This document shows, piece by piece, positions 10,775-59,337 of a DNA stretch of 64,000 nt. The number at the start of each line of letters is the position of its first letter. Position 1 is the first letter of the stretch. Both the position numbers and the translations under genes were made by a program. Location of the stretch: assembly GCA_016188065.1 (NCBI GenBank), contig JACPIN010000001.1:17661-81660 (forward strand), written 5' to 3'. Origin of the DNA: Candidatus Woesearchaeota archaeon (lineage in GTDB: Archaea; Nanobdellota; Nanobdellia; SCGC-AAA011-G17; ARS1403). Below the pieces are notes generated by a model. It ran no database searches. It was not told the DNA's origin and saw only the letters and a program-made list of their open reading frames with translations.

Positions 10775-11242
10775 ATGCAGTCTAGTAGGTTAATAATGAA
10801 TTTGAATAATGCTTTGAAGATATTAGAAAAGTATAGGATTAATAAAAATTTATTAAGTGGAGATATTCTTTACAGTAGTCAGTATGTATACGAGAATATC
10901 CGTAGAATGGGTGATCCACTTTCTGAAGAAGAACATATTGTCTTATTCGACACTTTTTGGAATTTAGGGATTAGGGATAGAAGAATCAATGTTACCATTA
11001 CACTCCCTGAACACCTGAAAATAAAGATTATAAGAAATAGGGATAAGCTTATGGATTTCCTGCCGGGTAGCAATGACATGGTGTACGCCAGGGTTGCTTA
11101 TTGTCTATATAACCCCACATGTATGCCATATGTTATAAAAAACTGTCAATTAAATGGTTCAGAGGAAGCTGAACTTTGGAATATTTTTCAGAGAATGAAG
11201 CTCCCAATCGCAGCAAGCTGCGGGGTATCCGTTAATGGTTGA
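10775..11242 (+). CDS. hypothetical protein whose 3' end runs into the IS200-like element
   Basis: 155 aa. The last residues (AASCGVSVNG) are encoded by the IS end hairpin. Confidence 0.3.
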   Translation: MQSSRLIMNLNNALKILEKYRINKNLLSGDILYSSQYVYENIRRMGDPLSEEEHIVLFDTFWNLGIRDRRINVTITLPEHLKIKIIRNRDKLMDFLPGSNDMVYARVAYCLYNPTCMPYVIKNCQLNGSEEAELWNIFQRMKLPIAASCGVSVNG

Positions 11243-11730
11243 ACTCATATAATGTCAACTGATTAACGTCCCTCCCTTGCTTTCTGACATACTCCTTTAC
11301 TTCATCAAGTCCTCTTCCATCTCCAACAGTATCGATATGGCCTCCGTCAGTCCAGAACTCACCACCCCATAATTCTTCTCTTATTTCTGGAAATTGCTTG
11401 AAGGTTTGAATTGCTATGATGCTTTTACAGATTTGCATAATTCTCGATGGAGAATATCTTGGAGCACCCTCTATGACAAGATGAACGTGATCAGATTCAT
11501 ATCCCAAAGCATCAAAGTAAAGATAGTATCTCTCTTGTATTCCTTTGCAAATAGTTTTCATAAAAGAAAACATTTCAGGAGTGATCAAATCTTTCCTGTA
11601 CTTGATTACAAAAACCATATGATAACGAATCCTATAGCTGCAATGTGATGCTTTTCTTACTCTCATGAAAAGCATAGATTGGAATTACCTTATTAGCATT
11701 ACGCAGCAAGCTGCGGGGTAATCCCCAAGT
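11200..11730 (-). mobile_element. IS200/IS605-family insertion sequence (TnpA only)
   Basis: A Y1 (HUH) transposase ORF is bracketed by the identical hairpin motif CGCAGCAAGCTGCGGGG at 11209-11225 and 11702-11718. Confidence 0.75.
11232..11675 (-). CDS. tnpA: IS200-type transposase TnpA (HUH/Y1)
   Basis: 147 aa. HUH motif DHVHLVIE and the catalytic-Tyr region ...VKEYVRKQ. The size is typical of IS200 TnpA. Confidence 0.8.
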   Translation of the reverse strand: MLFMRVRKASHCSYRIRYHMVFVIKYRKDLITPEMFSFMKTICKGIQERYYLYFDALGYESDHVHLVIEGAPRYSPSRIMQICKSIIAIQTFKQFPEIREELWGGEFWTDGGHIDTVGDGRGLDEVKEYVRKQGRDVNQLTLYEFNH

Positions 11731-16954: not shown

Positions 16955-17752
16955 ATGTATCTATCAAAAAAGAAAAAAATTTCCTACAATTATATAAACA
17001 AAGATTCAAAAAAGCCAGTATTAGTTTTCTTGCATGGGCTTGGAGCAAATTCAACAACGTGGAAAGGGGTTATAAGCAACCTGAAAAATAAAAACTTGCC
17101 AATACTATATCAGGATTTAAGAGGTCATGGTAAAAGCGAAATCTTTAGTAATTATGAACTTGAAGAATTTGCAAAGGATTTAAATGAAATTTTAAAAAAA
17201 GAAAAAATAAAAAAAATTATTTTGATAGGTCACAGCTTAGGGGGTATGATCTCACTAGTTTTTTATAAATTATTTAAAAATAAAGTAAGAAAAATAATTT
17301 TAATAGATACAACCTATAAAAATCCCGTACCTGTATGGTATCGTTATTTTTTTTATGTGATTGACAAGTCAATGACGAAAATAATCAACAAAATACATCT
17401 TCTAAAAAAGTCCCTAAATAAATACAGAGATTTTTATCAATTAAAAAACCAGCCAAATTTTTCAATTGTGCTAAAAACGATGTTTTACAGAAGAGATAAA
17501 GTCCAATTAAAGTGTATAAAAAACTTAACAAATTTTGATGCCACAAATATAATCAAATCCATTGAGATTCCAACATTAATCATAGGAAGCAAATATGATG
17601 AATTATTCCCTCCAAAAATACAAAAAGAAATGCATAAATACATAAAAGCAAGCAAATTAGAAATAATGAAAGGGACCCATGCAATTATTATAAAAAATCC
17701 AGATATAATTTCAAGAGAAATTTCGAGCTTCATAAAAGATGAAAATCAATGA
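16955..17752 (+). CDS. alpha/beta-hydrolase
   Basis: VLVFLHGLGAN, GHSLGG (GxSxG), and a C-terminal H region. Confidence 0.7.
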   Translation: MYLSKKKKISYNYINKDSKKPVLVFLHGLGANSTTWKGVISNLKNKNLPILYQDLRGHGKSEIFSNYELEEFAKDLNEILKKEKIKKIILIGHSLGGMISLVFYKLFKNKVRKIILIDTTYKNPVPVWYRYFFYVIDKSMTKIINKIHLLKKSLNKYRDFYQLKNQPNFSIVLKTMFYRRDKVQLKCIKNLTNFDATNIIKSIEIPTLIIGSKYDELFPPKIQKEMHKYIKASKLEIMKGTHAIIIKNPDIISREISSFIKDENQ

Positions 17753-19085
17753 ATATCTAGAAAAAGTAAAATCAAAAGAAATCTCCGTAGTTAAGACAGT
17801 AGAAAAAATTCTTCAGGAAGCAAAAAACTCGCCAAACCATTTTACAGCAATCTCAAGATCATATGCATTAGAGCAGGCAGAAAAAATAGAAAAAAATCCA
17901 GAAGGAAGATTAGCAGGCCTTCCAATTTCAGTTAAAGACGGTGTTTGTGTAAAAAATATAGAATCATCAGCAGGCTCGGAAATATTGAAAAACTACAGGC
18001 CTCCGTTTTCAGCTACTGTAATCAACAAATTAGAAAAAGAAGGGGCAATCATCATAGGAAAAACATCCCAGGATGAATTTGGTTTTGGAGGATTCTCAGT
18101 GAACACAAAAAAGATTCCAAAAAACCCTCATGATTTAGCAAGATCCTGTGGAGGAAGCTCAGGTGGAGCAGCAGGTTTTACATCATTCGCAACGCAGCCG
18201 CATATCGCATTGGGAGAATCTACAGGGGGAAGCATAGCAAATCCAGCATCTTTCTGCGGAGTGGCAGGATTAACTCCAACTTATGGCTTAGTTTCAAGAT
18301 ATGGTTTAATTGATTACGCTAATTCTCTAGATAAGATAGGGACTATTGCAAAAACCGTATCAGATGCTTTCCTAGGTTTATATCATATAGCAGGCTACGA
18401 CGAAAAAGATTCAACTTCATTGCCTCAAAAAATGCTTCAAGAAAAAAAAGTAAAAAAAATAGCAGTCATAAAAGAATCATTAAATGTAGATAAAGAAATA
18501 AAAGATATTATTTTAAGTAAATTAAAAAACTATGATACGATCTCGCTTCCATCGATAAAAAAGTATTCTCTTCCAGCATATTATCTAATAGCCTTGTCAG
18601 AAGCATCAACAAATCTGGCAAAGTATTGTGGCTTAAGATATGGTCAGACTCTTCCATTACAAGGAGGTTATAATGAATTTTTCACAGAAGTCAGAAGCAA
18701 GTATTTCTCAAAAGAGGCAAAGCGCAGAATTATCCTAGGAACTTTCGCAAGAATGTCGGGTTTCAGGGATGCCTATTATCTTAAAGCTTTAAAGGCAAGA
18801 ACACTAATAATTAAGGAATACAAGAAAGCATTCAAGAAATATGATATTCTAGTTTCCCCAACTATGCCAGTCACAGCTCCAAAGTTTTCAGAAATAGAAA
18901 AATTATCTCCATTAGAAAATTATATGATGGATATTTTAACAGTGGGTCCAAATCTAGCAGGTCTTCCCCACTTATCTCTAAATGCGGGCTTCAAAAACAA
19001 GCTTCCAGTTGGAATCATGCTAACAGCAAACCATTTAGAAGAGGAAAAATTAAGGGCTTTAGGTGAGGAAGTTGAGAATGACTGA
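17739..19085 (+). CDS. gatA: Asp/Glu-tRNA amidotransferase subunit A (amidase)
   Basis: Amidase signature GGSSGGAAG, a Ser-cisSer-Lys region, 448 aa. Confidence 0.9.
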   Translation: MKINEYLEKVKSKEISVVKTVEKILQEAKNSPNHFTAISRSYALEQAEKIEKNPEGRLAGLPISVKDGVCVKNIESSAGSEILKNYRPPFSATVINKLEKEGAIIIGKTSQDEFGFGGFSVNTKKIPKNPHDLARSCGGSSGGAAGFTSFATQPHIALGESTGGSIANPASFCGVAGLTPTYGLVSRYGLIDYANSLDKIGTIAKTVSDAFLGLYHIAGYDEKDSTSLPQKMLQEKKVKKIAVIKESLNVDKEIKDIILSKLKNYDTISLPSIKKYSLPAYYLIALSEASTNLAKYCGLRYGQTLPLQGGYNEFFTEVRSKYFSKEAKRRIILGTFARMSGFRDAYYLKALKARTLIIKEYKKAFKKYDILVSPTMPVTAPKFSEIEKLSPLENYMMDILTVGPNLAGLPHLSLNAGFKNKLPVGIMLTANHLEEEKLRALGEEVEND

Positions 19086-19586: not shown

Positions 19587-21629
19587 ATGAAATCGACAGA
19601 ATATATTACAGAAATAGACATAGGGGATATGCCTTACTTATCCAGGGGAATAAGAACTTATTTAGGATATGGACTTTTAGACACTAAAAAAATAGGGTTA
19701 TATCATGGTTTGGTTGGAAATTGGGAGTGCGGATCAAACCTTCCAAATAAAGAGAATTGGAATAGAATTAAACAATTGGTAAAATCCTCTGGAAAGTCTT
19801 ATGATGAGCTAATAGGATTAGGGAAGAAGAATTTTGGAGATTTGATAGGAGAGCTGTCAACAAAATCCAAAATACCAGAACAAATTTTTCTGAGATATGT
19901 AATATCAAAATGTCTCCATTTGAATTCGTCAAAAAAATTGGAAGACATTAAAAAAGGTAAGAGTAACTTATCAAAGAAAACAAAAAAGAAAGTATTAGAG
20001 ATATGGAAATATATTGAAGAGAATCAAGATAAAGATCCTAGGAGGATTATTATAGATTTACAAAGGAGATCAATTTTCTCGGATAGAAATCTTTTCTTAA
20101 AGATATTATTTTCAGGGTATATAAAGAGTCAAAAAAAAATCCTCGAAGATATCGGTATAAACTTCAGTAGTGGGTACATTAGTTCAATGTTTCATGATAG
20201 AAGACCCGTACCAAACATATTAATAAAAAAATTAAAAATGAATAATCCAAAAACAATATCAGAGATAGAAGAAAAAATAAATAGTAAAGATTCAAGAATT
20301 CATCAACAATGGCAGAGAGTGTCAAGATATAATTCAGTAATAGATTTACATTATAAGAACGAGGAATTTGAAGAAAAAGTTTTCAATATCATAGACAAGA
20401 TAGGGAAATACACAGTCAAAAATGGAATTGTTTCAGATAATGGTTTTAACTATATTGGAGAAGTGGATATAATCAGTAAAATAAATGGAAAAACAATTTT
20501 CTTTCTTTGCAAAAATACTAATAGTAGAAAATTAATTAACATAAAAAGGGATATAGTTAAGAAATCAATATTATTGCAGAAATACATTAATCCATATAAA
20601 ATTATTTTGGTTACCTCTTGCCTAGTAAGCAAAAAGGATTATTTTGAAAGAAACAAACTCTTAGTAATAGATAAGAAGAAACTATATAAGATACAAAATA
20701 ATCTAGAAGGCTTAGTTGAATTTGTTAAAAACAAAGGAAACTATCGCAGAACTAAAGAAAAAATAGATTTTGGAAGAGAAATCCCCACTATACTAAAAAA
20801 ATACAAATTATCCAAATACCAATTAGGCTCATTATTAAACATGAATGGAGGATATCTATCAAAAATTATCAAGACCGGCACAGAATTAAATAAAACAAGC
20901 AAACTAAAAAAGAGACTAGAAAAATTCCTTAAAGAATCAAAAAACAAAACAATAAGAGAGGTGCATCTATTATCAAACAGAAAGATACACCTAAAAAAGG
21001 AGGAATTTATTCTAAAGTATGTAAGGAAGAAACTAGGATTAAGTCAACAAAAGGTTTCAAAAGATCTAAAAACAAACCCTTCCAATATTGGAAATCTAGA
21101 AAGGGGCTTAGTAAAGAGAATAAAATTCAAACATACATATATACAATATTTAAAGTCGTTTAATAGTTATAATAAACTCAAAAAACAAGGAGAAAAAGAA
21201 TTTGTAAATTATAAGAAAAAATGGAATCACTTACCGAAATCTGGAAAAATAACAAAGATAAGGGACGAGCCAGTAAGAGGAAGAGAATTAGAAGAATTTA
21301 CAACAAAAATATTAGAAAATAACGGATTTTTTGTAATTAGGAACGTAGTTGTTACAAATAAAGACTTAACACTAAAACAAGAAATAGATATTTATGCAAA
21401 AAGAAAAAATAGGGAAATCGTTATAGAATGCAAAGATACTAAGATGTCAACAAAATGGCAAGATATTTCATATATCCTTAAAGATATAAAAACAGAAGTT
21501 CCTATTGATGAGGTAATATATTTGTCTCCACACATAACAAAACTAGGAAAAGATATACTTAAAGAGATAGGAATCATAGGATTAACCACGAAAGAATTAA
21601 AGAACTATTTGTGTGGTGGATCGTCATGA
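19587..21629 (+). CDS. large Lys-rich protein with HTH motifs and a C-terminal PD-(D/E)xK nuclease-like domain
   Basis: 680 aa. XRE-like HTH segments (LSKYQLGSLLNMNGGYLSKII; LGLSQQKVSKDLKTNPSNIGNLERG). The C-terminal ...EEFTTKILENNGFFV...QEIDIYAK...IVIECKD is a D...ExK core of restriction-endonuclease-like fold. Confidence 0.45.
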   Translation: MKSTEYITEIDIGDMPYLSRGIRTYLGYGLLDTKKIGLYHGLVGNWECGSNLPNKENWNRIKQLVKSSGKSYDELIGLGKKNFGDLIGELSTKSKIPEQIFLRYVISKCLHLNSSKKLEDIKKGKSNLSKKTKKKVLEIWKYIEENQDKDPRRIIIDLQRRSIFSDRNLFLKILFSGYIKSQKKILEDIGINFSSGYISSMFHDRRPVPNILIKKLKMNNPKTISEIEEKINSKDSRIHQQWQRVSRYNSVIDLHYKNEEFEEKVFNIIDKIGKYTVKNGIVSDNGFNYIGEVDIISKINGKTIFFLCKNTNSRKLINIKRDIVKKSILLQKYINPYKIILVTSCLVSKKDYFERNKLLVIDKKKLYKIQNNLEGLVEFVKNKGNYRRTKEKIDFGREIPTILKKYKLSKYQLGSLLNMNGGYLSKIIKTGTELNKTSKLKKRLEKFLKESKNKTIREVHLLSNRKIHLKKEEFILKYVRKKLGLSQQKVSKDLKTNPSNIGNLERGLVKRIKFKHTYIQYLKSFNSYNKLKKQGEKEFVNYKKKWNHLPKSGKITKIRDEPVRGRELEEFTTKILENNGFFVIRNVVVTNKDLTLKQEIDIYAKRKNREIVIECKDTKMSTKWQDISYILKDIKTEVPIDEVIYLSPHITKLGKDILKEIGIIGLTTKELKNYLCGGSS

Positions 21630-22987
21630 AGATAGGAATAGAGGCGCATATCCAGCTCTCAACTCTCAGTAAAATCTTTTGTTCTTGTCCAACATCTGGC
21701 TCAGAAAATCCAAATACTCTCACTTGTCCTACATGTTTGGGATTACCAGGTTCAAAGCCAGTTTTAAATAAAGAAGCGCTACATCAAGCAATAAAAGTAG
21801 CTCTCGCTTTAAATTGCTCAATGCCAACAGAAACTTTTTTCTCTCGTAAGAACTACTTTTTCCCAGATTTACCAAAGTCATATCAAATCTCCCAGTATGA
21901 AATCCCGATAGGGATAAATGGAAAATTAGAGAATATAAGAATGAGAAGGATTCATTTAGAAGAAGATCCAGGAGCATTAATTCATAAAGGCAACACAACT
22001 TTAATCGACTATAACAGATCAGGGATTCCTTTAATAGAAATTGTAACAGAGCCAGATTTTAAATCTCCCAATGAAGTTCGTTTGTTTCTAAGAAAATTAA
22101 TCACAATTCTAGAATATTTAAGCATCTACACCAGAAAGTCAGAAGCCACTATGAAAGCAGATGCAAATATCTCGACAACAGGAGAAAAAGTAGAAATAAA
22201 AAACATAACAGGGCTAAAGGAAATTGAACGCGCTTTGGAATATGAAGCAGCAAGGCAGAAAAAAGAGCCAGCTGAACAGCAAGAAACTCGCGGCTGGAAT
22301 TCAGAAAAAGGAATCACTTTTCTACAAAGAACAAAAGAGGAAGAAAGTGATTATGGGTATATCTTCGATTCTGATTTGCCAAAGATAGAAATTTCAAAAA
22401 GTCTACAAGAAGAAATTAAGAAACAAATTCCAGAATTATTTTTAGAAAAAGTTTCAAGATTCAAAACGCAATATAAGCTGCAGGCAGAGGATGCAGAAAC
22501 ATTGGCAGCAGAAAAAGAACTAGCAGAATTATTCGAGCAAGTAGCAACAAATATAGATCCTTTATTAGCAGCAAAATGGCTTAGAAGAGATTTGATGAAA
22601 GTTCTGCATTACAATAAAAAAGAATTGAAAGAAATAAAAATAGATGCCATGCACATTATCGAATTATTAACATTAGTAAAAGAAAGAAAAATAAATGATG
22701 CAACCGCAAAAGAGCTTCTAATAAAATTAATTGAAAAGCCATTCTCTCCAAGAGAGCAGGTAAAAAAACATAGTTTAGAAATGCTTTCTTCAGAAACAGA
22801 AATAGAAGATATGTGTAAAGAAGTAATAAAAAATAATAAAAGTGTTGTAGAAGATTACAAAAAAGGAAAGCAGGAAGCACTGCATTATTTAATCGGACAG
22901 GTTATGCGCTTGTCAAAAGGAAAGGCAGATCCAAAAGAAACAGAAAAAATATTGAAGAGATTATTGCAAAAAACTGTAGTATCCTAA
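21611..22987 (+). CDS. gatB: Asp/Glu-tRNA amidotransferase subunit B
   Basis: MKIGIEAHIQLSTLSKIFCSCPT is a GatB N-terminus, followed by the cradle domain and a YqeY-like tail. 458 aa. Confidence 0.9.
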   Translation: MWWIVMKIGIEAHIQLSTLSKIFCSCPTSGSENPNTLTCPTCLGLPGSKPVLNKEALHQAIKVALALNCSMPTETFFSRKNYFFPDLPKSYQISQYEIPIGINGKLENIRMRRIHLEEDPGALIHKGNTTLIDYNRSGIPLIEIVTEPDFKSPNEVRLFLRKLITILEYLSIYTRKSEATMKADANISTTGEKVEIKNITGLKEIERALEYEAARQKKEPAEQQETRGWNSEKGITFLQRTKEEESDYGYIFDSDLPKIEISKSLQEEIKKQIPELFLEKVSRFKTQYKLQAEDAETLAAEKELAELFEQVATNIDPLLAAKWLRRDLMKVLHYNKKELKEIKIDAMHIIELLTLVKERKINDATAKELLIKLIEKPFSPREQVKKHSLEMLSSETEIEDMCKEVIKNNKSVVEDYKKGKQEALHYLIGQVMRLSKGKADPKETEKILKRLLQKTVVS

Positions 22988-22989
22988 AT

Positions 22990-23433
22990 TCATTTATATT
23001 TGGGCTTTAATTCATTTAACAGCCTTTTAACTCTTTGAATGAATTCTTCTGCAATTGATAAATTATGCTCAGCAATGTCTTTAGAGTATACGTAGTGATA
23101 ATCTGCATCTTCTCTTGATGACATCGCCGCATTAAAGTCATTAATAAATCTCATCTCAAGTTTTCCTTTTTTATTTAATTCTTCTAAAACAACCCTCACA
23201 GCAAAATGCCTTTTTTCTCTATAGCCGAGTTCAAATAAAACCGCCCTTGCAGCATGAAAAAGGGAATAATAAGATTTGACAATGCCCCACTTAAAGTCCC
23301 CTTCTTCAAATGCCTTTTTTGCACTTTCCAGGTCATAATAGGCTTCATTTATCTCTTTCTGAACAAGTTTCTCATCGACATTAATCTTTTGCAGGATCCC
23401 TTTCTCCAAACAATCATTTATGTCCATCAGCAC
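22990..23433 (-). CDS. HEPN-domain protein (partner of the upstream nucleotidyltransferase)
   Basis: 147 aa helical protein with the ...ELGYREKRHFA region (R-x-H-like HEPN motif). It overlaps the MNT gene. Confidence 0.5.
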   Translation of the reverse strand: MLMDINDCLEKGILQKINVDEKLVQKEINEAYYDLESAKKAFEEGDFKWGIVKSYYSLFHAARAVLFELGYREKRHFAVRVVLEELNKKGKLEMRFINDFNAAMSSREDADYHYVYSKDIAEHNLSIAEEFIQRVKRLLNELKPKYK

Positions 23434-23975
23434 AGCCTTATTTTATCTTTTTCAACCCTTTCATAAAAAGCGGCATCCTTTTTTGAGAACTGAGACCATT
23501 CCAGTGGTGTAAAAGAAATAAATTTTATTTCTCTCCCTATTTGCCTCGATATCCTATCAAGATCAGGAAAAATTTGCTCCTTTTTTATTTTCCCGATTAT
23601 TAACAAGTCGATATCACTGCTTTCCACATCATCTCCTCTTGACGAGCTTCCATAGAGATAAATCTCAATGCCATATTTATTTCCCAAGAGATTAATCTTA
23701 TTCAGAATTAACAGGTTATCCAGAACTTTAAACTGTTTAACTATAGAATTATTTTTATTAAGCTGATAAATCTTATTTAATCCTATTTTCTCCATTGTTA
23801 TTAAATTTTCCTTCAAAAGAAACCTCAGATATTTTGTCAGAGTGGCTTTGGCTATTTTAACACTCTTCTTCAAATTTGTATATGAAATCTGGCTTCTCGG
23901 ATTCCTAATAAAGTATTTCAGAACCCTAAGTAACGCTCTATTTCCAAGTTCATCTAATTGAACCATATGTATCAA
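23427..23975 (-). CDS. wHTH-fused minimal nucleotidyltransferase (MNT)
   Basis: An N-terminal winged helix is followed by the NTase motif YLYGSSSRGDDVESSDIDLLI (GS...DxD). Confidence 0.65.
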   Translation of the reverse strand: MIHMVQLDELGNRALLRVLKYFIRNPRSQISYTNLKKSVKIAKATLTKYLRFLLKENLITMEKIGLNKIYQLNKNNSIVKQFKVLDNLLILNKINLLGNKYGIEIYLYGSSSRGDDVESSDIDLLIIGKIKKEQIFPDLDRISRQIGREIKFISFTPLEWSQFSKKDAAFYERVEKDKIRLC

Positions 23976-24060: not shown

Positions 24061-26952
24061 TCACTCTAATCTTTTCAATTCCTCTTTTAATCTCTCTTTC
24101 TCTTCTCCTTTAGCATTTAAATATTTCTGCGCCAGCTCCAAAAATTTATTATAAGAATTCTTCTCAAGTATAACAACTATCTCATCTCTAACGCATTTAT
24201 TCGGATCTTGGCTAGAAGTTCTAAATCCGAATGGGCAACAAATCTCAGGCTTGTTTACTAAAACACAATTAAATCTGCTTGAGCTTCCAGTAGTAGTATC
24301 TTGAACAACATTCCCTGTAACATCTGTGAAACCAACATCCCAAACTGTGCTTCCAGTAACAGCAGGAATTTCAGAACTGCTTTTAACACCTGAAACAGCC
24401 AACACAGAATCCTTGCTAATCTTTTTTCCTTTATATTCAAACACAACAGGAAGATTAACACCGCTTCCCTTTCCAGCATTTACCTTAACATTAAATTCAA
24501 CCTCGCATTTCTCTCCATACCCCAAATTCTTGCAAGCTTTACTTTTCTCTTTAGCATCCAAGCATTTCTTACAATCCTTCCCGCCACAATCGACATATTC
24601 TTCATCCTTATTTTGTGTTCCATCCTCGCAATGATTAGGCTCAGTAAAAATATTCTTAACAGTTTCTACTATTCTCTCAACAGCAGTTTTCTCCTCTGGC
24701 TTTTTATCGCCGCAAGTTTGCCCCTGCTCAATATTTCCGTAGACACAATTGTTCAAGCAATTACACCCGTCAACATCATCGCATTTTACATTGCAGTTAT
24801 TTAAGCTGCTTTTTGCACCATCGCCTAGAACCTCACTACATACATCTCTTCCAAATTCAAGTGCAAACATAAAGAAATCCTCTAAGTCTATTTTTCCACT
24901 ACCATCCAAATCAAATTTCTCAGTTTCATTATTTATTCCCTTGCCAAATTCATTTGCAAACAAGAAATAATCATCCATATCCACCTTCCTGTTTTTGCTA
25001 AAGTCTACTCTCTTATTCGGTGTACATTCAAGAACATCAGAAGTCTTGGCTAAAGCTCCAGAAGTAACTTTAGTGGCTCTACATTTACTTCCCTTGCCAA
25101 ATTCGTCTGTAAAAATAAAAAAATCATTAAAGTTAATCTCATTGTTGGAATCCATATCATACTTTTTTGTCTCTGCAACAGTAGGTTTCCCAAAATTTTC
25201 TTTAAACAAATTAAAGTCGCCCATATCAAAACAATCGTTATTATCAAAGTCACCTTTTAAAGTTGGGCGAGGAGGTTCTGCAGGTTTTGTAGGCTGCTCT
25301 ACTCGTTTAACTGAACTGCATTTAACTATCAACCTTCCTTTCTTATCAATTCCAGGACAAGGATCTGGTTTGCAGACATTGTTATCGAAATAATATTCAA
25401 CTTCTTTCTCTCCTACCCCCCCATCTATAATTCCGCTTCCTGCTCTTTGAATCTTCTCAACTGAACAAGAAGATTTTCTGACATTATCAGCAGGATCCTG
25501 AGGACAATAATAATAAGACTGAATTTTTTCAATTACACTGCCTGCAGGGCAATTAAATTTTGCACGTCTGTTTCCTTCCATAGCATCTTTAGCCGAAAGA
25601 AACCCACCATCAGGAGTTGTTTCTATCTTTTCATTTACACCTAGATAAAGACCAGCGAAAATAAAAAAATCTTCAAAATCAATATCCCTATCTCTATCCA
25701 AATCAAACTTAGCATTTTCCTGCACTACTTGCTTTGCAAAATTCTGAGAAAATAATTTAAAATCTTCAACATTAACCACATTATTATTGTCAAAATCAGC
25801 ACCGACTTTCGGATATTCAATCCCGCACTTTGCAATTAACTTTCCCTTCTTCACAAATCCTGGACAAGGATCTCCGCATATTTCATTGCTAAAGGTATAT
25901 CTTACTGAGAGACTTCCTTTTCCACCGACATTTAACCCCAACCCGCCATAAGTGTTAAGGGGGCAAAATTTAGATTTCCCCAATAAAGCAGCATTGTTAT
26001 CTCCACTTTTATCCCTATCAGATCTATCTTCAACATTCAAACAGTAATAATAGGCTTGCAATTCAGTAATAATTTTCCCAGAAGGACAAAAAACATCAGC
26101 ATCATAATTTCTATCAGCAATACCACTTTCAACGACGTCACCCCCAGTTAGCAGAACAATAGGTTCATCCTTTTTAGGCAGAGGAAGAGTTTCAATAGTT
26201 GGACATACTTGATATTTAATTTCCTCAAGGTTAAAGGGGTTGCATTTATTCACATCTTTACAGCTTCTAGATTGGACAATTCCTGGTTTACATTCACTCC
26301 ATACCCCACAATCTGTAAATTTGGGAACGCAACATCCAGTCACTGTGCATATACCAGACAAAAGACAAGGATCACTACCGGTTTTCCAACATTTCTTATC
26401 CTGTCCAAGTTGAGAGCAAGCAAGATCACCGCCTGTTTCTCTAACAGGATAATTACAAACTCCTCTTCCAAAATCCATGCTTGGAGACACTAATCCAATG
26501 CTACTTCCAGTACACCAACCACCAAAATCACCACAACTTGGAATCTTAGATGGAACAGGTTTAGTAGAAGATAGTGATTCCTGCGAAGGGAGGGTTGGCG
26601 GAGGAGAAGTTGTTTGAGTGCTTTCAGATTTTACACATCCAGTAGCAGTACATTTTTCATTTTCTCCACATGGTCTTCCCACTGTAGCCCAACATCTTCT
26701 TTGATCATTCTTAGGAATAGTTCTTTTTGCACAGGCCTCAGAGTCATCTTTGACTTCTTGTTTATAATAACAATATCCTCCTCGAAGATAAAGTTGTGTC
26801 TGCCCGCCATTGTCATGTATAGAACAATATTCGTCCTCTTCAAACTCGCAATTAGTTCCAGCTCCTACATTAACAGAAAAATACACACTAACTAAAAACA
26901 AAATAATTAGACTAAAACAAATTCTCTTTCCATAAAATTTTCTATTTATCAT
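24061..26952 (-). CDS. secreted Cys-rich protein with at least 3 dockerin-like double-repeat modules
   Basis: 963 aa with a signal peptide. Repeated modules of the form DFDNNNVVNVEDFKLF...FDLDRDRDIDFEDFFIF (dockerin Ca-binding loops). Repeated GDPCPG...KCG motifs. Confidence 0.6.
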   Translation of the reverse strand: MINRKFYGKRICFSLIILFLVSVYFSVNVGAGTNCEFEEDEYCSIHDNGGQTQLYLRGGYCYYKQEVKDDSEACAKRTIPKNDQRRCWATVGRPCGENEKCTATGCVKSESTQTTSPPPTLPSQESLSSTKPVPSKIPSCGDFGGWCTGSSIGLVSPSMDFGRGVCNYPVRETGGDLACSQLGQDKKCWKTGSDPCLLSGICTVTGCCVPKFTDCGVWSECKPGIVQSRSCKDVNKCNPFNLEEIKYQVCPTIETLPLPKKDEPIVLLTGGDVVESGIADRNYDADVFCPSGKIITELQAYYYCLNVEDRSDRDKSGDNNAALLGKSKFCPLNTYGGLGLNVGGKGSLSVRYTFSNEICGDPCPGFVKKGKLIAKCGIEYPKVGADFDNNNVVNVEDFKLFSQNFAKQVVQENAKFDLDRDRDIDFEDFFIFAGLYLGVNEKIETTPDGGFLSAKDAMEGNRRAKFNCPAGSVIEKIQSYYYCPQDPADNVRKSSCSVEKIQRAGSGIIDGGVGEKEVEYYFDNNVCKPDPCPGIDKKGRLIVKCSSVKRVEQPTKPAEPPRPTLKGDFDNNDCFDMGDFNLFKENFGKPTVAETKKYDMDSNNEINFNDFFIFTDEFGKGSKCRATKVTSGALAKTSDVLECTPNKRVDFSKNRKVDMDDYFLFANEFGKGINNETEKFDLDGSGKIDLEDFFMFALEFGRDVCSEVLGDGAKSSLNNCNVKCDDVDGCNCLNNCVYGNIEQGQTCGDKKPEEKTAVERIVETVKNIFTEPNHCEDGTQNKDEEYVDCGGKDCKKCLDAKEKSKACKNLGYGEKCEVEFNVKVNAGKGSGVNLPVVFEYKGKKISKDSVLAVSGVKSSSEIPAVTGSTVWDVGFTDVTGNVVQDTTTGSSSRFNCVLVNKPEICCPFGFRTSSQDPNKCVRDEIVVILEKNSYNKFLELAQKYLNAKGEEKERLKEELKRLE

Positions 26953-28439
26953 CCTAAACTTACCTTAACATCTCCGCATCCATCTTTCTCAGAGCAAATA
27001 AAGCTAGCTTTAACAGTAACTTCCTCATTGCTATTAACATTTATCGCGCCTTCCGCATTATTTACAAAAACACTAGGCTCGCAAGAGCTGCTTGGAATTC
27101 TCTGCTTCTCCCAAACATTTCCACTCACACAAGCCTCTCTGCCATCACCGCATAACCCAGTTCTTCTAACCTCTCCAGGGATACAGCTGCATATGCTTTC
27201 ATCTATTTCACCATTGCAATTATCATCTATTTTATTAGCACAAAATTCGCCGCTATTTTTCAGCAAAGTTACCTGCTCAACTTGCTTTCCTGTACAAGCA
27301 CATCCCTGTAAATTTTCATCGATAACACCATTGCAGTTATTATCAACCCCATCGCAAATTTCTTTAGCATTAGGATTTATCTTTCCATTGAAATCATTGC
27401 AGTCATCCCCTCCAATTAATTTGCAGAAAGCCCTTTTATTATCTCTAAACCCATCTCCATCAGCATCGCAGGTTGCAGTGCAGTCCAAATCTTTCCCATC
27501 GCAGTTCTCATCTATCCCATTATTATTATTAACATCAGGATTGCATCTCTCAGTAGCACTAGGATTTATCAAAGCATTATTATCATTGCAGTCAGTTCCG
27601 CCTTGAAAAGCATTTGAATCATATCCGTCTCTATCATTATCTAATTCTTGCCCAGTTTTTAAGCTGCATTCACAATATCCTGCAAAGAAAGTGCTTTTCA
27701 AATCCCCAAGCAATCCGGGAACTGCCATGTTAGCGCATATTTTATCAGGAATTATTTGAGAAGCACCGGCAAAAACACATCCTATTTTTTCAATAACGGT
27801 TTTTTCCTTAGGAATTTCACCGACAGGCTTTTCAGTTACCTTAACATCTTTCTGCAATTTCTCAGCTCCAGGCTTTACACACTCTCCTAATCTCCCTTTG
27901 CACTCAGCTAAATTTTCATTGGTGCAGCATATCTGCTCACTGCTCGGGCATCCGCAAAATCCAGGACCGGCACATCTTGGAACAATCTTTTGATTGCTGC
28001 AGAACAAGGGCTTGTCATTCGCATTATTCGTAAATTTAGAAACACATTCATTATTTTTAATAGCAGTCCCTTTATAATCACAGCTCAATAAATTCTCAAA
28101 GTTTAACACGAAATCTATCCGGTTAGGATTCTGGTTCACATCTCTAACAACAAAGTAATAATCTCCAGGCTCATGTATCTTCAGCGAATCAAAAGAAACT
28201 GGATCACAAACACCATTAGAATTACAGCTCAACAAAGAAGATGCTTTAAATTTTTCTATAGGATCAGCCCCGCCTTGATATTTCCCCTTGTAGAATTCAG
28301 CAGTTTTAGAAAAATCTCCTTTAATTGTAATTTGAATATTTCCTTTAGCAAGAACATATTGAATATTCAAAGTAGACTGGCTAAATGATGAAGAAGCTAT
28401 CAAGAGAAAAATTAAAATTAAAATTAACTTGCTGAGCAA
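26949..28439 (-). CDS. secreted Cys-rich protein with MopE-like putative metal-binding repeats
   Basis: 496 aa with a signal peptide. Repeats of DCNDxNxxINPxAxExCDGxDNxCxGxIDE type. Confidence 0.5.
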   Translation of the reverse strand: MLSKLILILIFLLIASSSFSQSTLNIQYVLAKGNIQITIKGDFSKTAEFYKGKYQGGADPIEKFKASSLLSCNSNGVCDPVSFDSLKIHEPGDYYFVVRDVNQNPNRIDFVLNFENLLSCDYKGTAIKNNECVSKFTNNANDKPLFCSNQKIVPRCAGPGFCGCPSSEQICCTNENLAECKGRLGECVKPGAEKLQKDVKVTEKPVGEIPKEKTVIEKIGCVFAGASQIIPDKICANMAVPGLLGDLKSTFFAGYCECSLKTGQELDNDRDGYDSNAFQGGTDCNDNNALINPSATERCNPDVNNNNGIDENCDGKDLDCTATCDADGDGFRDNKRAFCKLIGGDDCNDFNGKINPNAKEICDGVDNNCNGVIDENLQGCACTGKQVEQVTLLKNSGEFCANKIDDNCNGEIDESICSCIPGEVRRTGLCGDGREACVSGNVWEKQRIPSSSCEPSVFVNNAEGAINVNSNEEVTVKASFICSEKDGCGDVKVSLG

Positions 28440-28936
28440 TTTCTCACCTCTATTTTTTTCTTTTTGTCAACGCAAAATTGAAATCCCTCTCCAGATTTTA
28501 CTCTCGGAACAACTTCCAAAAATTGTATTGCTTTATATTTTGTAATATCCTCGCCTAATAAGCCTTTTGCTTCATAAGTCGGTCTTGATATGCCTATAGC
28601 CTTCACCTCATAAGCATTTAACCGAGTATCATATAAAAAACTTCCTACGCCCCAATCATTTTCATTGGGATGAAAAAACCTGACAGCAAACCCATCTTTG
28701 AAATCAATCTTTTTCTCATTCTTAACTTTTACAATTACTAATCCCCCTTCACAATAAGCATCTTCAATAAAGAACTTCACCTCATCGCAATTAGAAAACC
28801 CCTCAAAGACCTTTTGTCCTTTTTCAAATCCAGATTCAACTGTTTCTCTAGTTAAATTAAAAATAACAACAAGCATAGTAACAACAAACACAATTAATAA
28901 AACAGAAGCTATTAACGGAGAGATACCTCTTTTCAT
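28424..28936 (-). CDS. archaeal type IV pilin-like protein (class III signal peptide)
   Basis: The N-terminus MKRGISPLIASVLLIVFVV is a canonical (K/R)G(I)SP prepilin motif followed by a hydrophobic helix. 170 aa. Confidence 0.6.
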   Translation of the reverse strand: MKRGISPLIASVLLIVFVVTMLVVIFNLTRETVESGFEKGQKVFEGFSNCDEVKFFIEDAYCEGGLVIVKVKNEKKIDFKDGFAVRFFHPNENDWGVGSFLYDTRLNAYEVKAIGISRPTYEAKGLLGEDITKYKAIQFLEVVPRVKSGEGFQFCVDKKKKIEVRNCSAS

Positions 28937-28996
28937 ACAAACCTTTAAAAGATTAAAATATATAAAACTTTACAAGGGCCTATAGTACATAGTGCA

Positions 28997-29063: not shown

Positions 29064-29792
29064 ATGAAAATCACGCCAGAATTATCAGAAATAAGTGGGA
29101 TCCATAGTGGAGATGGACACTTAAGGAGGGATAAAGAACTCGAAATTAGCGGGAGCTTTGAAGAAAAAGAATATTATGACACGAGGGTCATTCCTTTATT
29201 TAATAATTTCTTTAATTTATCTATAAAGGGAAGGTTTTTTACAAGTAAAGGAACATATGGTTTTTGGGTAGTCAACAAAGAAATAGGAAATACATTAAAG
29301 GAAATAGGATTCCCTTCAGGTAACAAAACCAAAACTGTAAAAGTCCCTAACATCATATTGAAGTCTAACAACAGTTCTATTAGAAGATCCTTCCTAAGAG
29401 GTTTATTTGACACAGATGGTTGCATGAGTTTTAATAAAAGAATTTATAATAAAAATCATTTCAAAAAAACCAAAAATTTCTATCCTACCATACTAATCGT
29501 GAGTATATCCAAAAATCTGATTAAGGGAGTAGATTTATTATGTAAAAAAGAAGGTTTTGAATCAAAAGTATACCTCCACATACCAAAAAAGAAAACAGAA
29601 AACATCCGTTATATAATGCAAATATCTGGGGAAAAATCTCTTCTAGATTGGATGGAAAAAATCTCCCCTAAAAATCAAATAAAAGTTTCTAGATTTAAGG
29701 TCTGGGAAAAATTTGGGCACTGTCCATCAAAAGCAACCTATAAAGAAAGACTAGAAATACTTAAAAGCCAGCAAATTAAAGATTTCTTGTAG
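29064..29792 (+). CDS. double-motif LAGLIDADG homing endonuclease-like protein (free-standing)
   Basis: Two LAGLIDADG motifs: ISGIHSGDGHL and FLRGLFDTDGCM. 242 aa. The stop codon overlaps the first nt of the tRNA. Confidence 0.7.
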   Translation: MKITPELSEISGIHSGDGHLRRDKELEISGSFEEKEYYDTRVIPLFNNFFNLSIKGRFFTSKGTYGFWVVNKEIGNTLKEIGFPSGNKTKTVKVPNIILKSNNSSIRRSFLRGLFDTDGCMSFNKRIYNKNHFKKTKNFYPTILIVSISKNLIKGVDLLCKKEGFESKVYLHIPKKKTENIRYIMQISGEKSLLDWMEKISPKNQIKVSRFKVWEKFGHCPSKATYKERLEILKSQQIKDFL

Positions 29793-29894
29793 GGCCTGTA
29801 GTATAACCTGGATAGTATATTCGGCTTCAAAGATTAACACTTTGTTAACTTGGCCAAGGACCGAAAGATCTCGGTTCAAATCCGGGCAGGCCCG
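29792..29894 (+). tRNA. tRNA-Arg(TCG) with a 29-nt intron at non-canonical position 35/36 (anticodon assignment tentative)
   Basis: Acceptor GGGCCTG/CAGGCCC, D-stem GTAT/GTAT (two G.U pairs), anticodon stem TTCGG/CCGAA, T-arm CTCGG-TTCAAAT-CCGGG. The insert 29829-29857 forms a relaxed BHB (H = GGCT/GGCC, plus a TTAACA/TGTTAA hairpin), giving loop CTTCGGA. Confidence 0.65.
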
Positions 29895-30932: not shown

Positions 30933-32366
30933 ATGTCAAAAGAAACGCAAGAAGGGATCACAGTAAAGAAAGAAGAGAATTTCTCAGAGTGGTACACTCA
31001 AATAATTCAGAAAGCGGATCTGGCAGATTATTCAAAAGTAAAAGGATGCATGGTAATCAAGCCAAATGCTTATTTCATATGGGAGCAGATACAGGATTAT
31101 TTCAATAAAAGGTTAAAACTATTAAAAGTGAGAAACGCATATTTCCCATTATTCATTCCAGAATCATTTTTCCAAAAAGAAGCAGAGCATGCCCAAGGAT
31201 TTAAGCCGGAAGTTGCATGGATTGAAAAAGAGGAAGAGGGAGAAAGATTAGCAGTAAGGCCAACATCAGAGACGGTAATATATGATTCATATTCAAAGTG
31301 GATTCGTTCTCATAGAGACTTGCCATTAAGAATTAATCAGTGGGCAAACATCGTTAGATGGGAAACGAAGGCAACAAGGTTATTTATCAGAACAAGAGAA
31401 TTTCTTTGGCAGGAAGGCCATTGTGTGTATGAAACAGAAGAGGAGTGTGATAAAGAGGCTGTGCAGTTTCTTAATGAATATAAAAAACTCTGCGAGGATC
31501 TTTTAGCGATTCCAGTAATAACGGGAAAGAAGTCAGAAAAAGAAAAATTTGCAGGAGCATACTACACATTAAGTATAGAATCAATAATGCCTGACGGCAG
31601 AGCCTTGCAGATGGGAACCTCTCATAATCTTGCTCAAAATTTTTCGAAATCATTTAATATAAAATTCCTGGATCAATCTGGAAAAGAAAAGTTGCCTTGG
31701 CAGAATTCGTGGGGGATCTCAACAAGATTAATAGGGGCATTGGCAATGTTCCATGGAGACGATAAAGGGCTTGTTTTGCCGCCTAAAGTAGCATTTTCAA
31801 AAATAGTCATCATCCCAATATTATTCAAAGAAACAGAAGAAAAAGTTTTGAAAAAAGCAAAGGAAATTGAAAATAAATTAAAAAAATATAACCCTATTTT
31901 AGATGATCGTAATTATTCTCCAGGCTGGAAATTCAACGAATGGGAATTAAAAGGCACCCCTATAAGATTAGAAATCGGGCCAAAAGAGATTGATAAAAAA
32001 CAGGTTGTTTTAGTAAGAAGGGACAATAACAAAAAAGAATTTGTAAAAATCTCTTCAATAACGAAAAAAATAGAAGAATCATTGGAAGATATGCAGAAGA
32101 ATATGCTGGAAAAGGCGCGAAAAGAAATGCAGTCTAAAGTAGTAAAAGTCAGCTCATTTGCAGAATTCCAAAAAGCAATCAAAGGTAAAAAAGCAGTTCT
32201 AGTTCCTTGGTGTGGATTAAGAAAATGTGAAGAGGAAATTCGAGAGAAATCAGATGGAGCAAAATCAATTAATATGCCATTTGACCAGCCAAAAGATCTC
32301 AAGGAAAAATGTTTCAATTGTAATGATATGTCATTAGGGTTGTGGTATTTTGCTAAATCATACTAA
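30933..32366 (+). CDS. proS: prolyl-tRNA synthetase (archaeal/eukaryotic type)
   Basis: Class II motifs, VRPTSETVIY, and a C-terminal Zn-binding domain ending ...GLWYFAKSY. 477 aa. Confidence 0.9.
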   Translation: MSKETQEGITVKKEENFSEWYTQIIQKADLADYSKVKGCMVIKPNAYFIWEQIQDYFNKRLKLLKVRNAYFPLFIPESFFQKEAEHAQGFKPEVAWIEKEEEGERLAVRPTSETVIYDSYSKWIRSHRDLPLRINQWANIVRWETKATRLFIRTREFLWQEGHCVYETEEECDKEAVQFLNEYKKLCEDLLAIPVITGKKSEKEKFAGAYYTLSIESIMPDGRALQMGTSHNLAQNFSKSFNIKFLDQSGKEKLPWQNSWGISTRLIGALAMFHGDDKGLVLPPKVAFSKIVIIPILFKETEEKVLKKAKEIENKLKKYNPILDDRNYSPGWKFNEWELKGTPIRLEIGPKEIDKKQVVLVRRDNNKKEFVKISSITKKIEESLEDMQKNMLEKARKEMQSKVVKVSSFAEFQKAIKGKKAVLVPWCGLRKCEEEIREKSDGAKSINMPFDQPKDLKEKCFNCNDMSLGLWYFAKSY

Positions 32367-46853: not shown

Positions 46854-46859
46854 TCGAAA

Positions 46860-59262: not shown

Positions 59263-59337
59263 ATAATATTTCTATAAAAGATGTAATTTAAAAACTTTCG
59301 GTAATTTTAAAAACGAAATAAACAGCAGAATAAGCAT

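Follow-up and report, generated by a model that had tools for sequence, protein, structure and literature searches.

A conserved gene cassette of a Woesearchaeota archaeon encoding a pilin-like protein, a MopE-type repeat protein and a protein with lectin-like and dockerin-type modules, with a possible role in surface adhesion

Non-cellulosomal dockerins often occur without a recognisable cohesin, and many are not known to have a partner. A survey reviewed them in bacteria, archaea and eukaryotes (Peer et al. 2009, as cited in PMC10066038), and an adhesive role has been suggested for them in ultrasmall bacteria (Omnitrophota giant ORFs; PMC10066038). Tandem lectins resembling the rhamnose-binding lectins (RBL) were listed as absent from Archaea in a 2024 survey (PMC11186620). 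Cluster-2 DPANN, Woesearchaeota among them, have conserved type-IV-pilus loci with a proposed role in host interaction (bioRxiv 10.1101/2023.02.24.529834). Here we describe a three-gene cassette, P1-P2-P3, in which modules resembling those of all these systems are found together. As in the non-cellulosomal dockerin surface proteins of archaea and ultrasmall bacteria (as far as cited in PMC10066038), P3 is secreted, carries double Ca-loop modules and lacks a cellulolytic context, adhesion being the role proposed for such proteins. Unlike in those proteins, the dockerins of P3 take turns with SUEL-like lectin domains, the two having been duplicated as one cassette, and the P3 gene is locked to a gene for a MopE-type partner and usually to a pilin-like gene as well.

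The cassette was analysed within a stretch of 64,000 nucleotides, referred to as the window, from a Candidatus Woesearchaeota metagenome-assembled genome (MAG); the window also encodes ribosomal protein L15e. An initial annotation, made from the letters of the DNA, had placed three co-directional, overlapping genes at 24061-28936 in a DPANN-like archaeon and treated them as one operon. The coordinates proved exact, both junctions overlap (16 nt for P1/P2 and 4 nt, ATGA, for P2/P3), and the host is indeed a DPANN archaeon. The genes and their putative signals are as follows.

28959-28966, minus strand: TATA-like box TTTATATA, 30 nt before the P1 start codon (ATG); putative promoter of the operon, giving a leaderless transcript or a short leader
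28424-28936, minus strand: P1, 170 aa, begins MKRGISPL
28444-28450, minus strand: Shine-Dalgarno-like GAGGTGA, separated by 4 nt from the P2 start codon (TTG), within the 3' end of P1
26949-28439, minus strand: P2, 496 aa, TTG start
24061-26952, minus strand: P3, 963 aa (NCBI HYV89_00295)

P1, P2 and P3 very probably form one transcript, because a TATA box is present only at P1, the junctions overlap and TATA-like sites are depleted inside the operon. The box lies exactly at -30 of the P1 ATG, and TATA-like boxes at -29 to -31 also precede other first-in-operon genes of the window (HTH680, NTase182, LAGLIDADG, unk375 and LeuRS); the same scan showed none upstream of P2 or P3. The sequence TTTAWAWW occurs once in the 4.9-kb coding strand of the operon, compared with a window mean of 1.14 per kb, so the operon proposed initially is retained. 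In P1, P2, P3 and the second dockerin protein of the window, P334 (see below), a hydrophobic segment is found at the N-terminus only.

P1 is pilin-like by sequence and by the architecture of its model, and filament formation is predicted at most. It shares with the archaeal type IV pilin/archaellin superfamily (TIGR02537/PF07790; Pyrobaculum pilus 8FK7; FlaF 4P94) a [KR]G class-III signal peptide, a hydrophobic N-terminal helix and an Ig-like beta-sandwich head. The cleavage motif MKRG/ISPLIASVLLIVFVVTMLVVIF, that is MKRG/IS followed by 22 hydrophobic residues, fits the pattern [KRDE][GA][ALIFQMVED][ILMVTAS] plus helix and is kept in 14 members of the P1 family. The prepilin signal peptide noted in the initial annotation is recognised by TIGR02537, the archaellin/type IV pilin N-terminal domain (22.2 bits, cut-off 20); Pfam Pilin_N matches P1 family members below threshold, with a best E of 0.085. 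The AF2 model (pLDDT 76.5) has a lollipop fold with a helix at residues 7-42 and a beta-sandwich at 55-163, and its best Foldseek match is the archaeal T4P 8fk7_A (E=1.9e-3). The head is an Ig/FN3-like beta-sandwich with four conserved Cys; taken on its own it is generic FN3-like and is matched by many unrelated FN3/Ig domains. Two conserved disulfides in the head set P1 apart from the superfamily, as does the absence of assembly genes near P1: scans of window ORFs and of the 5.7 kb past the right end of the window revealed neither a prepilin peptidase (PibD/Peptidase_A24) nor a gene for a pilus ATPase or platform protein.

P2 is a Sec-secreted protein with 36 Cys (7.3%). Its conserved N-terminal domain leads into a CAGPGFCGCPSSEQICCTNEN motif, after which come the D/N-rich MopE-type repeats and, last, a C-terminal domain rich in Cys.

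27195-27647, minus strand: MopE-type/DxDxDG-type repeat region of P2, about aa 265-415, from Pfam and a motif scan

These repeats have the same DC[ND]D...INP.A.E.C[DN]G.DN[DN]C[DN]G..DE pattern as MopE and other PF11617 proteins. PF11617 (Cu-binding_MopE) scores 75.3 bits on P2 against a cut-off of 27, in three stretches of which the best lies at 346-375, and its motif is also found in P2 orthologues. P2 had been described as packed with the repeats; they are present, yet they make up only about 30% of the 496 residues, and the N- and C-terminal domains have no known relatives, with a PDB search finding none for the N-terminal domain. The repeats had also been called a putative metal- or calcium-binding motif. 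A MopE-type copper site, built from two His and a Trp-derived kynurenine, was considered and rejected: unlike MopE, P2 lacks the copper-ligand residues, having one His and one Trp, and such a site therefore cannot form in the repeats. Copper binding of the MopE kind is thus unlikely, and judged by composition the repeats resemble calcium sites. Against the MopE structure 2VOV, P2 gives a weak match (E=0.12), over residues 16-43 of the 2VOV chain only.

P3 is a Sec-secreted, modular protein with 55 Cys (5.7%) and without a C-terminal membrane anchor. A signal peptide and two Cys-rich modules of about 70 aa precede two successive units of a SUEL-like lectin plus a dockerin, which are followed by a third dockerin and a conserved C-terminal domain whose last element is a charged helix.

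25810-26163, minus strand: SUEL/rhamnose-binding-lectin-like module 1, P3 aa 264-381
25633-25806, minus strand: dockerin-type module 1, P3 aa 383-440, loops at 386 and 417
25303-25623, minus strand: SUEL/rhamnose-binding-lectin-like module 2, P3 aa 444-550
25078-25260, minus strand: dockerin-type module 2, P3 aa 565-625, best Pfam Dockerin_1 stretch 566-611
24832-25014, minus strand: dockerin-type module 3, P3 aa 647-707, matched by 2Y3N_B
24064-24660, minus strand: conserved C-terminal domain, P3 aa 765-963

The lectin and dockerin are duplicated as one cassette with 39% identity over about 180 aa; the AF2 model of this cassette is of low confidence (pLDDT 42). The C-terminal domain combines a C.DG.QN.DE..VDCGG.DC..C motif, a beta-rich region, SRFNCVL...CCPFGF and the terminal charged helix. 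It is common to more than 20 representative proteins that differ in their N-terminal parts, no relative was found in a PDB search, and it may serve in anchoring or assembly.

The GDPCPG-KCG modules of P3, already recognised in the initial annotation, can now be given an identity: at E values of 1e-3 to 1e-6 they appear to be divergent SUEL/rhamnose-binding-lectin-like domains, each duplicated together with a dockerin. A profile built from 16 P3-type modules, with canonical SUEL sequences excluded, has among its best PDB matches the L-rhamnose-binding lectin 5H4S (E=2.5e-4), the full-length RBL domain of the latrophilin-like 8SUF_E (E=2.7e-3) and the lectin 5IAZ (E=0.045), and besides these SUEL/RBL lectins it also matches 9mzg_B (E=0.0041). 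In addition, the related protein P0023 combines one P3-type module with a Pfam-positive SUEL_Lectin domain (37.9 bits, cut-off 31.4), and the profile recognises this domain with an i-E of 1e-6. Compared with the SUEL/RBL lectins (PF02140; CSL3, latrophilin RBL domain, 5H4S, 8SUF), the modules are equally long (about 95 aa), are likewise repeated in tandem, and have the same CP.G..I start and the same conserved DPC.G..K...C end, in which the Lys of KYL is retained; among P3-type modules, DPC.G..K..L..C is nearly invariant. They differ in that YGR is replaced by YYC (YY[YF]C across P3-type modules), in having six invariant Cys rather than the eight that form four disulfides, in falling below the Pfam threshold, as PF02140 gives no match on P3 at E<=1, and in their archaeal host. 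A lectin with a dockerin is also found in the small secreted proteins P0030, P0052 (annotated Nanoarchaeota archaeon) and P0092, and the lectin-like module recurs in the subtilase-containing relative P0051.

The cassette is conserved in related loci. P2 is followed by a P3-like gene in all 10 related loci compared (10/10), and P1 immediately precedes P2 in about 10 of 13. All compared loci come from related groundwater-type MAGs, and part of this synteny therefore reflects shared ancestry. P2 orthologues are 39-80% identical across the related loci. P3 is remodelled quickly relative to P1: in locus L004, P1 and P2 are 81% and 78% identical and the housekeeping neighbours 65-79%, compared with 53% for P3, in which modules have been gained or lost, and in L014, where P1 is 93% identical, P3 has 592 aa instead of the 963 aa seen here. 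The protein at the P3 position in L011 carries He_PIG, TSP1, cadherin-like, MopE and dockerin modules, which, together with the divergence of P3, suggests that the P3 slot holds interchangeable adhesin-type heads. An SLT-domain giant protein neighbours the cassette here and adjoins it in L010.

Whether the pilin-like protein belongs physically with its neighbours can be weighed from the same loci. P1 could be an independent core pilin or a FlaF-type archaellum/pilus accessory, and P2-P3 a separate secreted unit that merely sits behind the P1 promoter in many lineages. In GCA_018302705.1, the P1 orthologue is found by itself, flanked by ProRS and GatB in what is taken as the ancestral position, with P2-P3 on another contig that has no P1 coding sequence in the available 166 nt upstream. 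P1 is likewise missing upstream in L017, where P2-P3 lies behind a divergent NTase gene, and in L005 a 518-nt spacer with its own TATA-like box separates P1 from P2. Such independence would also suit the FlaF soluble domain, which is among the best structural matches of P1, and the rates of change, P1 evolving like the housekeeping neighbours and P3 not. Yet the 16-nt P1/P2 overlap is kept in L004, L007, L010, L014 and L020, in L010 together with the internal Shine-Dalgarno although P1 is only 45% identical there, and P1-P2 adjacency persists despite flanking genes that vary between loci. The absence of any physical pilus coupling is considered unlikely, if quite credible. The initial annotation had an operon coupling a pilin to P2 and P3: as a frequent arrangement this stands, but it is not obligatory, the parts being separate in at least two lineages, so that pilin and adhesin need not be physically linked.

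The dockerin-type modules invite a second alternative. Six EF-hand-type loops, at 386/417, 568/599 and 650/681, fit D.[DNS].[DNSG]......[DE], and the 31-aa spacing within each pair gives three complete double-loop modules, in agreement with the at least three first reported. PF00404 (Dockerin_1) matches two stretches of P3 with 25.9 bits against 22.9, so that P3, like P2 with PF11617, passes a curated Pfam cut-off. Module 3, the P3 stretch matched most often in an exhaustive search, aligns (residues 650-708) over the full length of the solved B. cellulosolvens dockerin 2Y3N_B (E=0.002) and scores 18.9 bits with NF041540 (dockerin_GC), under the cut-off. As in the cellulosomal type I/II dockerins, such as that of B. 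cellulosolvens Cel48 (2Y3N), the modules have two loop-helix segments with the same Ca-ligand positions 1, 3, 5 and 12. Unlike these, they have the helix motif DF..FA..FG rather than the clostridial pattern, pass the Pfam threshold marginally and sit in a protein that carries no enzyme, and no scaffoldin or cohesin (PF00963) was found among the window ORFs scanned, with several small ORFs of at least 110 aa read by eye. The missing cohesin had been noticed initially, together with the claim that dockerins imply a cohesin-bearing partner; that claim is not safe, since non-cellulosomal dockerins are known from Bacteria, Archaea and Eukarya alike (Peer et al. 2009, as cited in PMC10066038). The modules could instead be EF-hand-pair calcium clamps that stabilise extracellular proteins rich in disulfides or bind an S-layer or polysaccharide, with no cohesin partner at all. 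The wide occurrence of non-cellulosomal dockerins and the lack of a cohesin among the window ORFs scanned would fit such clamps, as would the marginal Pfam scores, the additional matches of EF-hand models and the presence of the module in hundreds of otherwise unrelated representative proteins. The P3-like proteins of relatives score 13-18 bits with PF00404, below the cut-off. However, the full duplicated loop-helix architecture with its fixed spacing, the end-to-end alignment with a solved cohesin-binding dockerin and the placement of the modules at protein termini or between functional domains, like true dockerins, argue against clamps, which we regard as distinctly improbable.

The window holds a second protein of this kind.

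54659-55663, minus strand: P334, 334 aa, Sec-secreted, with an N-terminal dockerin-type module (aa 21-77) and a C-terminal domain

The earlier identification of P334 as a dockerin protein is supported by homology: P334 matches the dockerin region of the L007 P3 orthologue (E=3e-13), and its homologue in L007 is 57% identical to P3 dockerin module 3 (E=2e-14). It is not supported by Pfam, which gives no dockerin match and weak EF-hand matches only. In L004 and L007 a P334 homologue follows P3 at a distance of 2.6 kb, and in L010 one comes immediately after the P3-like gene; P334 is probably an accessory member of the system.

A role in nutrient acquisition, as a mini-cellulosome-like complex for polysaccharide degradation or a MopE-like scavenger of copper or other metals, would suit the Pfam names and the module in the subtilase-containing P0051, but is very improbable given that glycoside hydrolase, CBM and protease domains are all missing from P1, P2, P3 and P334, that P2 has a single His and a single Trp and that MopE is matched over a short N-terminal stretch only.

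Surface adhesion, favoured over a cellulosome from the outset, remains the better fit, and we see roughly an even chance that P1-P2-P3 is a conserved surface cassette forming a calcium-dependent, glycan-binding adhesion complex of Woesearchaeota-type DPANN archaea. Expressed from the one promoter upstream of P1, the three proteins would act as follows. P1 would be cut at KRG/I by a prepilin peptidase, and its N-terminal helix would stay in the membrane or polymerise, displaying the Ig-like head. P2 and P3 would leave the cell through Sec and acquire many disulfides on folding, P2 serving as the conserved partner, with probable calcium sites in its repeats, and P3 as the variable effector. The two lectin-like domains of P3 may bind sugars on the envelope of a host cell or on a substrate, for example glycans of the rhamnose or galactose type, while the dockerin-type modules and the C-terminal domain of P3 would hold P3 and P334 on the cell's own surface via a putative partner. 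It could further be speculated, as a long shot when its parts are taken jointly, that P1, P2, P3 and P334 make up a previously undescribed, cohesin-independent Woesearchaeota "adhesosome". Here, the dockerin-type modules would plug P3 and P334 onto P2 or the Ig-like head of P1, an archaea-specific, divergent SUEL/RBL branch would read glycans of the host envelope, shuffling of the lectin-dockerin cassette in P3 would set host range and, with the SLT-domain giant protein, the complex would fasten onto a bacterial host and break through its peptidoglycan wall. For the surface adhesion complex itself, the SUEL/rhamnose-binding-lectin-like identity of the P3 modules would provide a concrete class of ligands through which these archaea may attach to their hosts.

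Three minus-strand open reading frames (ORFs) lie exactly at 28936-24061, where the initial annotation had placed a pilin gene and the genes for two large Cys-rich secreted proteins, in a window that comes from a Candidatus Woesearchaeota metagenome-assembled genome (MAG) and also encodes ribosomal protein L15e. These and other genes referred to below are:

28936..28424, minus strand: P1, pilin-like protein, 170 aa
28439..26949, minus strand: P2, MopE-repeat protein, 496 aa, TTG start
26952..24061, minus strand: P3, lectin-like and dockerin protein, 963 aa (NCBI HYV89_00295)
54659-55663, minus strand: P334, 334-aa protein
6510-7916, 17739-19085 and 21611-22987, plus strand: GatB-family/GatA genes

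The P2 stop and the P3 ATG overlap as ATGA, and a Shine-Dalgarno-like GAGGTGA lies inside the end of P1, 4 nt ahead of the P2 TTG. Scans for sigma-70 promoters and intrinsic terminators gave chance-level counts and are inapplicable to archaea; TATA-box position analysis was used instead. Here, TTTATATA is located exactly 30 nt 5' of the P1 ATG, the position at which such a box is seen 5' of several other first genes in the same window, while no TATA-like box occurs within 70 nt upstream of P2 or P3. The 4.9-kb coding strand holds a single TTTAWAWW site, where the average over the window is 1.14 per kb and strand, and the NTase/HEPN gene pair downstream of P3 has its own TATA-like box at -29. 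The box positions and the scarcity of TTTAWAWW sites support co-transcription of P1-P2-P3 well at sequence level, and the single transcript proposed earlier is probable.

The class-III (prepilin) signal ascribed to P1 is borne out by a match to TIGR02537, the archaellin/type IV pilin N-terminal model (22.2 bits, cut-off 20). The N-terminus reads MKRG/ISPLIASVLLIVFVVTMLVVIF, a class-III cleavage motif that leads into a hydrophobic helix of 22 residues. An AF2 model built from a 15-sequence family alignment (pLDDT 76.5) places a helix at residues 7-42 and a beta-sandwich at 55-163; among PDB structures, Foldseek ranks the archaeal type IV pilus subunit 8fk7_A of Pyrobaculum first (E=1.9e-3) and the FlaF soluble domain third. 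The predicted fold agrees with membership of the pilin superfamily, although the head by itself is not discriminating. Among 18 P1 homologues, the two named by source are Woesearchaeota MAG proteins, and the others are metagenome sequences.

Related loci in other MAGs and metagenomes (L-numbers) were collected from P1-homologue contigs and from genome and metagenome collections scanned with a P2 alignment, and their genes were identified by BLAST comparison with the proteins of the window. Groundwater samples of the Hainich and Rifle type contain L004, L014 and L015. P2 orthologues in these loci are 39-80% identical, and a P3-like gene follows P2 in 10/10 loci with the downstream region present (window, L004, L005, L007, L008, L010, L011, L012, L014 and L017). 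P1 lies directly 5' of P2 in ~10/13 loci with a visible upstream region, and the 16-nt P1/P2 overlap is common to the window, L004, L007, L010, L014 and L020. The coupling of a pilin to P2 and P3 described in the initial annotation holds as a frequent arrangement, but it is not obligatory. GCA_018302705.1 carries a lone P1 orthologue between ProRS and GatB (L003), whereas its P2-P3 genes sit on another contig (L008) with 166 nt upstream that contain no P1 coding sequence; L017 has a divergent NTase gene 5' of P2, and L005 has a 518-nt spacer carrying its own TATA-like box. These separated arrangements favour a reading in which P1 works independently of P2-P3, and the common adjacency and shared overlap weigh against it; we regard it as possible, if unlikely.

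The flanks of the P1-P2-P3 cassette vary from locus to locus. The window order is ProRS-PIN ... P1-P2-P3-NTase-HEPN-GatB and that of L014 is NTase-HEPN-P1-P2-P3-GatB, while L005 is flanked by a giant CarboxypepD_reg protein and toxin-antitoxin genes, and L010 has P334-like and SLT-related genes downstream. The window holds three NTase/HEPN pairs, at 22990-23975 (-), 46215-47348 (+) and 55664-56667 (-), with one NTase gene adjoining P334 at zero gap, and five related loci (L004, L005, L014, L020 and L021) have a 4-nt overlap between the HEPN stop and the P1 start; from these positions, toxin-antitoxin-like modules recur beside these surface-protein genes. Two GatB-family paralogues (one possibly GatE-like), GatA and AspRS share one 16-kb stretch. 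A 147-aa ORF with an HVHLVI motif (11232-11675, minus strand) resembles, on inspection by eye, the Y1 transposase TnpA of IS200/IS605. The ProRS at 30933-32366 (+) is 38% identical to the ProRS of L004/L001 in the same syntenic position, where neighbours reach 56-82%, and is of the same type as that of L011 (74%); it looks like an in-place displacement by a distant ProRS. A 103-nt tRNA found by Rfam (49 bits, 29792-29894, plus strand), overlooked by ARAGORN and directly abutted by a LAGLIDADG-domain ORF (29064-29792, plus strand), is probably an intron-containing archaeal tRNA, and the 90-nt "tRNA-Pyl (cta)" called by ARAGORN at 59337-59426 is probably a mis-typed intron-containing tRNA.

Each of P1, P2, P3 and P334 has a hydrophobic segment at the N-terminus only, so P2 and P3 are predicted to be Sec-secreted, without a C-terminal membrane anchor. 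P2 contains 36 Cys, and its MopE-like motif is recovered as a PF11617 match at 75 bits; a profile search with its N-terminal domain gave nothing significant among PDB sequences. P3 contains 55 Cys and matches PF00404 Dockerin_1 (25.9 bits, cut-off 22.9), and its residues 650-708 align with the entire Bacteroides cellulosolvens dockerin of solved structure 2Y3N_B (E=0.002). It carries six EF-hand-type loops in three pairs with a 31-residue spacing within each pair, and hence three complete dockerin modules, in line with the at least three double-loop modules counted previously. The initial annotation also noted GDPCPG-KCG modules in P3; two are present (aa 264-381 and 444-550), each followed by a dockerin, and the whole lectin-plus-dockerin unit is duplicated (39% identity over ~180 aa). 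The dockerin-type modules of the cassette define a DF..FA..FG subfamily that is widespread among DPANN-type surface proteins.

The GDPCPG-KCG modules now have a probable identity. A three-module profile matched the L-rhamnose-binding lectin 5H4S (E=0.0019) on all three of its repeats. Further module copies were taken from an exhaustive search of 1.84 billion representatives and placed by local HMM search, giving a 16-module profile from which canonical SUEL sequences were deliberately left out. This profile has four PDB matches at E<=1, three of them SUEL/RBL lectins: 5H4S (E=2.5e-4), the latrophilin-like RBL domain 8SUF_E (E=2.7e-3, full domain length) and the beta-galactosidase SUEL domain 5IAZ (E=0.045); the remaining one, 9mzg_B (E=0.0041), is entered in the PDB as a G-protein beta subunit. 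One relative, P0023 (2090 aa), combines a P3-type module with a separate Pfam SUEL_Lectin domain (37.9 vs 31.4 bits) that the P3-type profile recognises (i-E=1e-6). From these matches, the P3 modules are called putative divergent SUEL/rhamnose-binding-lectin-like domains. They differ from canonical SUEL domains in having YY[YF]C in place of YGR and six rather than eight conserved Cys, and P3 itself has no Pfam SUEL match. Word-indexed homologue searches returned only P3 itself for P3 and nothing for the lectin alignment, which reflects word-index limits and not orphan status, as the exhaustive search finds relatives. An AF2 model of the lectin-plus-dockerin unit (2-sequence alignment) reached pLDDT 42 and was left out of the fold search. 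Two small lectin-plus-dockerin proteins of P3 type are annotated as Nanoarchaeota archaeon.

Between the window and L004, identity is 65-79% for housekeeping neighbours, 81% for P1 and 78% for P2; P3 shows 53% identity across its C-terminal half, with whole modules gained or lost. The L004 protein (614 aa) has one lectin and one dockerin, compared with two lectins and three dockerins in the 963-aa window protein. L014 is 93% identical to the window in P1 and 94% in GatA/AspRS, and its P3 has 592 aa, while in L011 the protein encoded at the P3 position has at least 1038 aa and combines He_PIG, TSP1, cadherin-like, MopE and dockerin modules. The last 200 aa of P3 recur as a shared domain in more than 20 representative proteins with differing N-terminal parts, and a profile search with this domain found no relative among PDB sequences. 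We infer that a constant C-terminal domain with a swappable adhesin-type head would be typical of surface proteins diversifying under host or environment pressure. The DNA repeats contain no near-identical template/variable pair of a diversity-generating retroelement and are solely old module duplications (62-84% identical).

P334, previously listed as a second dockerin protein, has no Pfam dockerin match, but the assignment finds support in L007: its P334 homologue is 57% identical to the third dockerin module of P3 (E=2e-14), and P334 matches the dockerin region of the L007 P3 orthologue (E=3e-13). A custom dockerin HMM confined such modules to P3 and P334; as it contained P3/P334 sequences, it shows solely that other window ORFs carry no such module. 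In both L004 and L007, a P334 homologue lies 2.6 kb 3' of P3, and in L010 one sits immediately 3' of the P3-like gene. Other secreted or candidate surface proteins are encoded in the window. An 1815-aa secreted archaeal protein (47862-53309, minus strand) has CarboxypepD_reg and SLT lytic-transglycosylase domains; an 854-aa protein immediately 3' of P1-P2-P3-P334 in L010 (4655-7219) resembles its residues 585-878 and shares 36% identity over 61 aa with a 195-aa secreted protein containing 14 Cys (45370-45957, minus strand). The SLT protein may be part of this surface system and is a hint of a partner with a peptidoglycan wall. A 682-aa protein without a Pfam family (60664-62712, minus strand), in which a signal peptide precedes a T/S/D/E-rich body and a C-terminal transmembrane anchor that ends in RKK, may be an S-layer or other major surface protein and could be a docking target.

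As the initial annotation had stated, no cohesin is found among the Pfam-scanned window ORFs, several small ones (at least 110 aa) having been read by eye, and neither the prepilin peptidase and pilus ATPase that it proposed to look for (Peptidase_A24, T2SSE ATPase) nor TadC is found among them. None of the four was found in the 5.7 kb past the right end of the window, where ribosomal protein genes alone were reached. Type-IV-pilus loci (CpaF, TadC, FlaF, PilA) are reported throughout cluster-2 DPANN, including Woesearchaeota (bioRxiv 10.1101/2023.02.24.529834), so the machinery may lie elsewhere in this genome. On the best explanation, judged about as likely as not, P1-P2-P3, with P334, would form a calcium-dependent, glycan-binding adhesion module, in which P1 would be a pilin-like component borne on membrane or filament, P2 a conserved Ca-repeat partner, P3 a variable lectin-bearing head kept on the cell via its dockerins and/or conserved C-terminal domain, and P334 a second dockerin-tagged cargo. 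The lack of a cohesin among the scanned window ORFs would suit dockerin-type modules that are mere Ca clamps or direct binders of S-layer or polysaccharide, and the full-length alignment with a solved dockerin speaks for true dockerins; we consider the clamp or direct-binder alternative quite improbable. A cellulosome is unlikely because the proteins have no catalytic or CBM domain and no cohesin is found among the scanned window ORFs, and its rejection in favour of adhesion is upheld. MopE-type copper binding by P2 is also unlikely, since P2 holds one His and one Trp, a composition on which the copper-scavenger reading is rejected.

Archaeal pilin-like proteins, non-cellulosomal dockerins, MopE-type repeats and eukaryotic and bacterial SUEL lectins are each already known singly. 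Three things appear new: P1-P2-P3(-P334) as a conserved arrangement of genes in Woesearchaeota-type DPANN, the cassette of lectin plus dockerin, and a putative archaeal branch of SUEL-like lectins that current models do not detect; according to a 2024 survey (PMC11186620), Archaea lack tandem RBL-like lectins. In the gene cassette, the pilin-like gene and the Ca-repeat partner are conserved, and the lectin-like head protein evolves fast. To our knowledge, Woesearchaeota have no cultured member, and we know of no account of how they attach to partners. While not categorically new, the cassette is a concrete, testable candidate for DPANN attachment. Judged from sequence, the lectin-like domains of P3 would suggest glycans of the rhamnose or galactose type as the class of ligand, and would extend SUEL/RBL-like lectins into Archaea in a form overlooked by current Pfam models. 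Should the lectins prove to bind glycans of the host, variants of P3 could serve for host prediction or capture.
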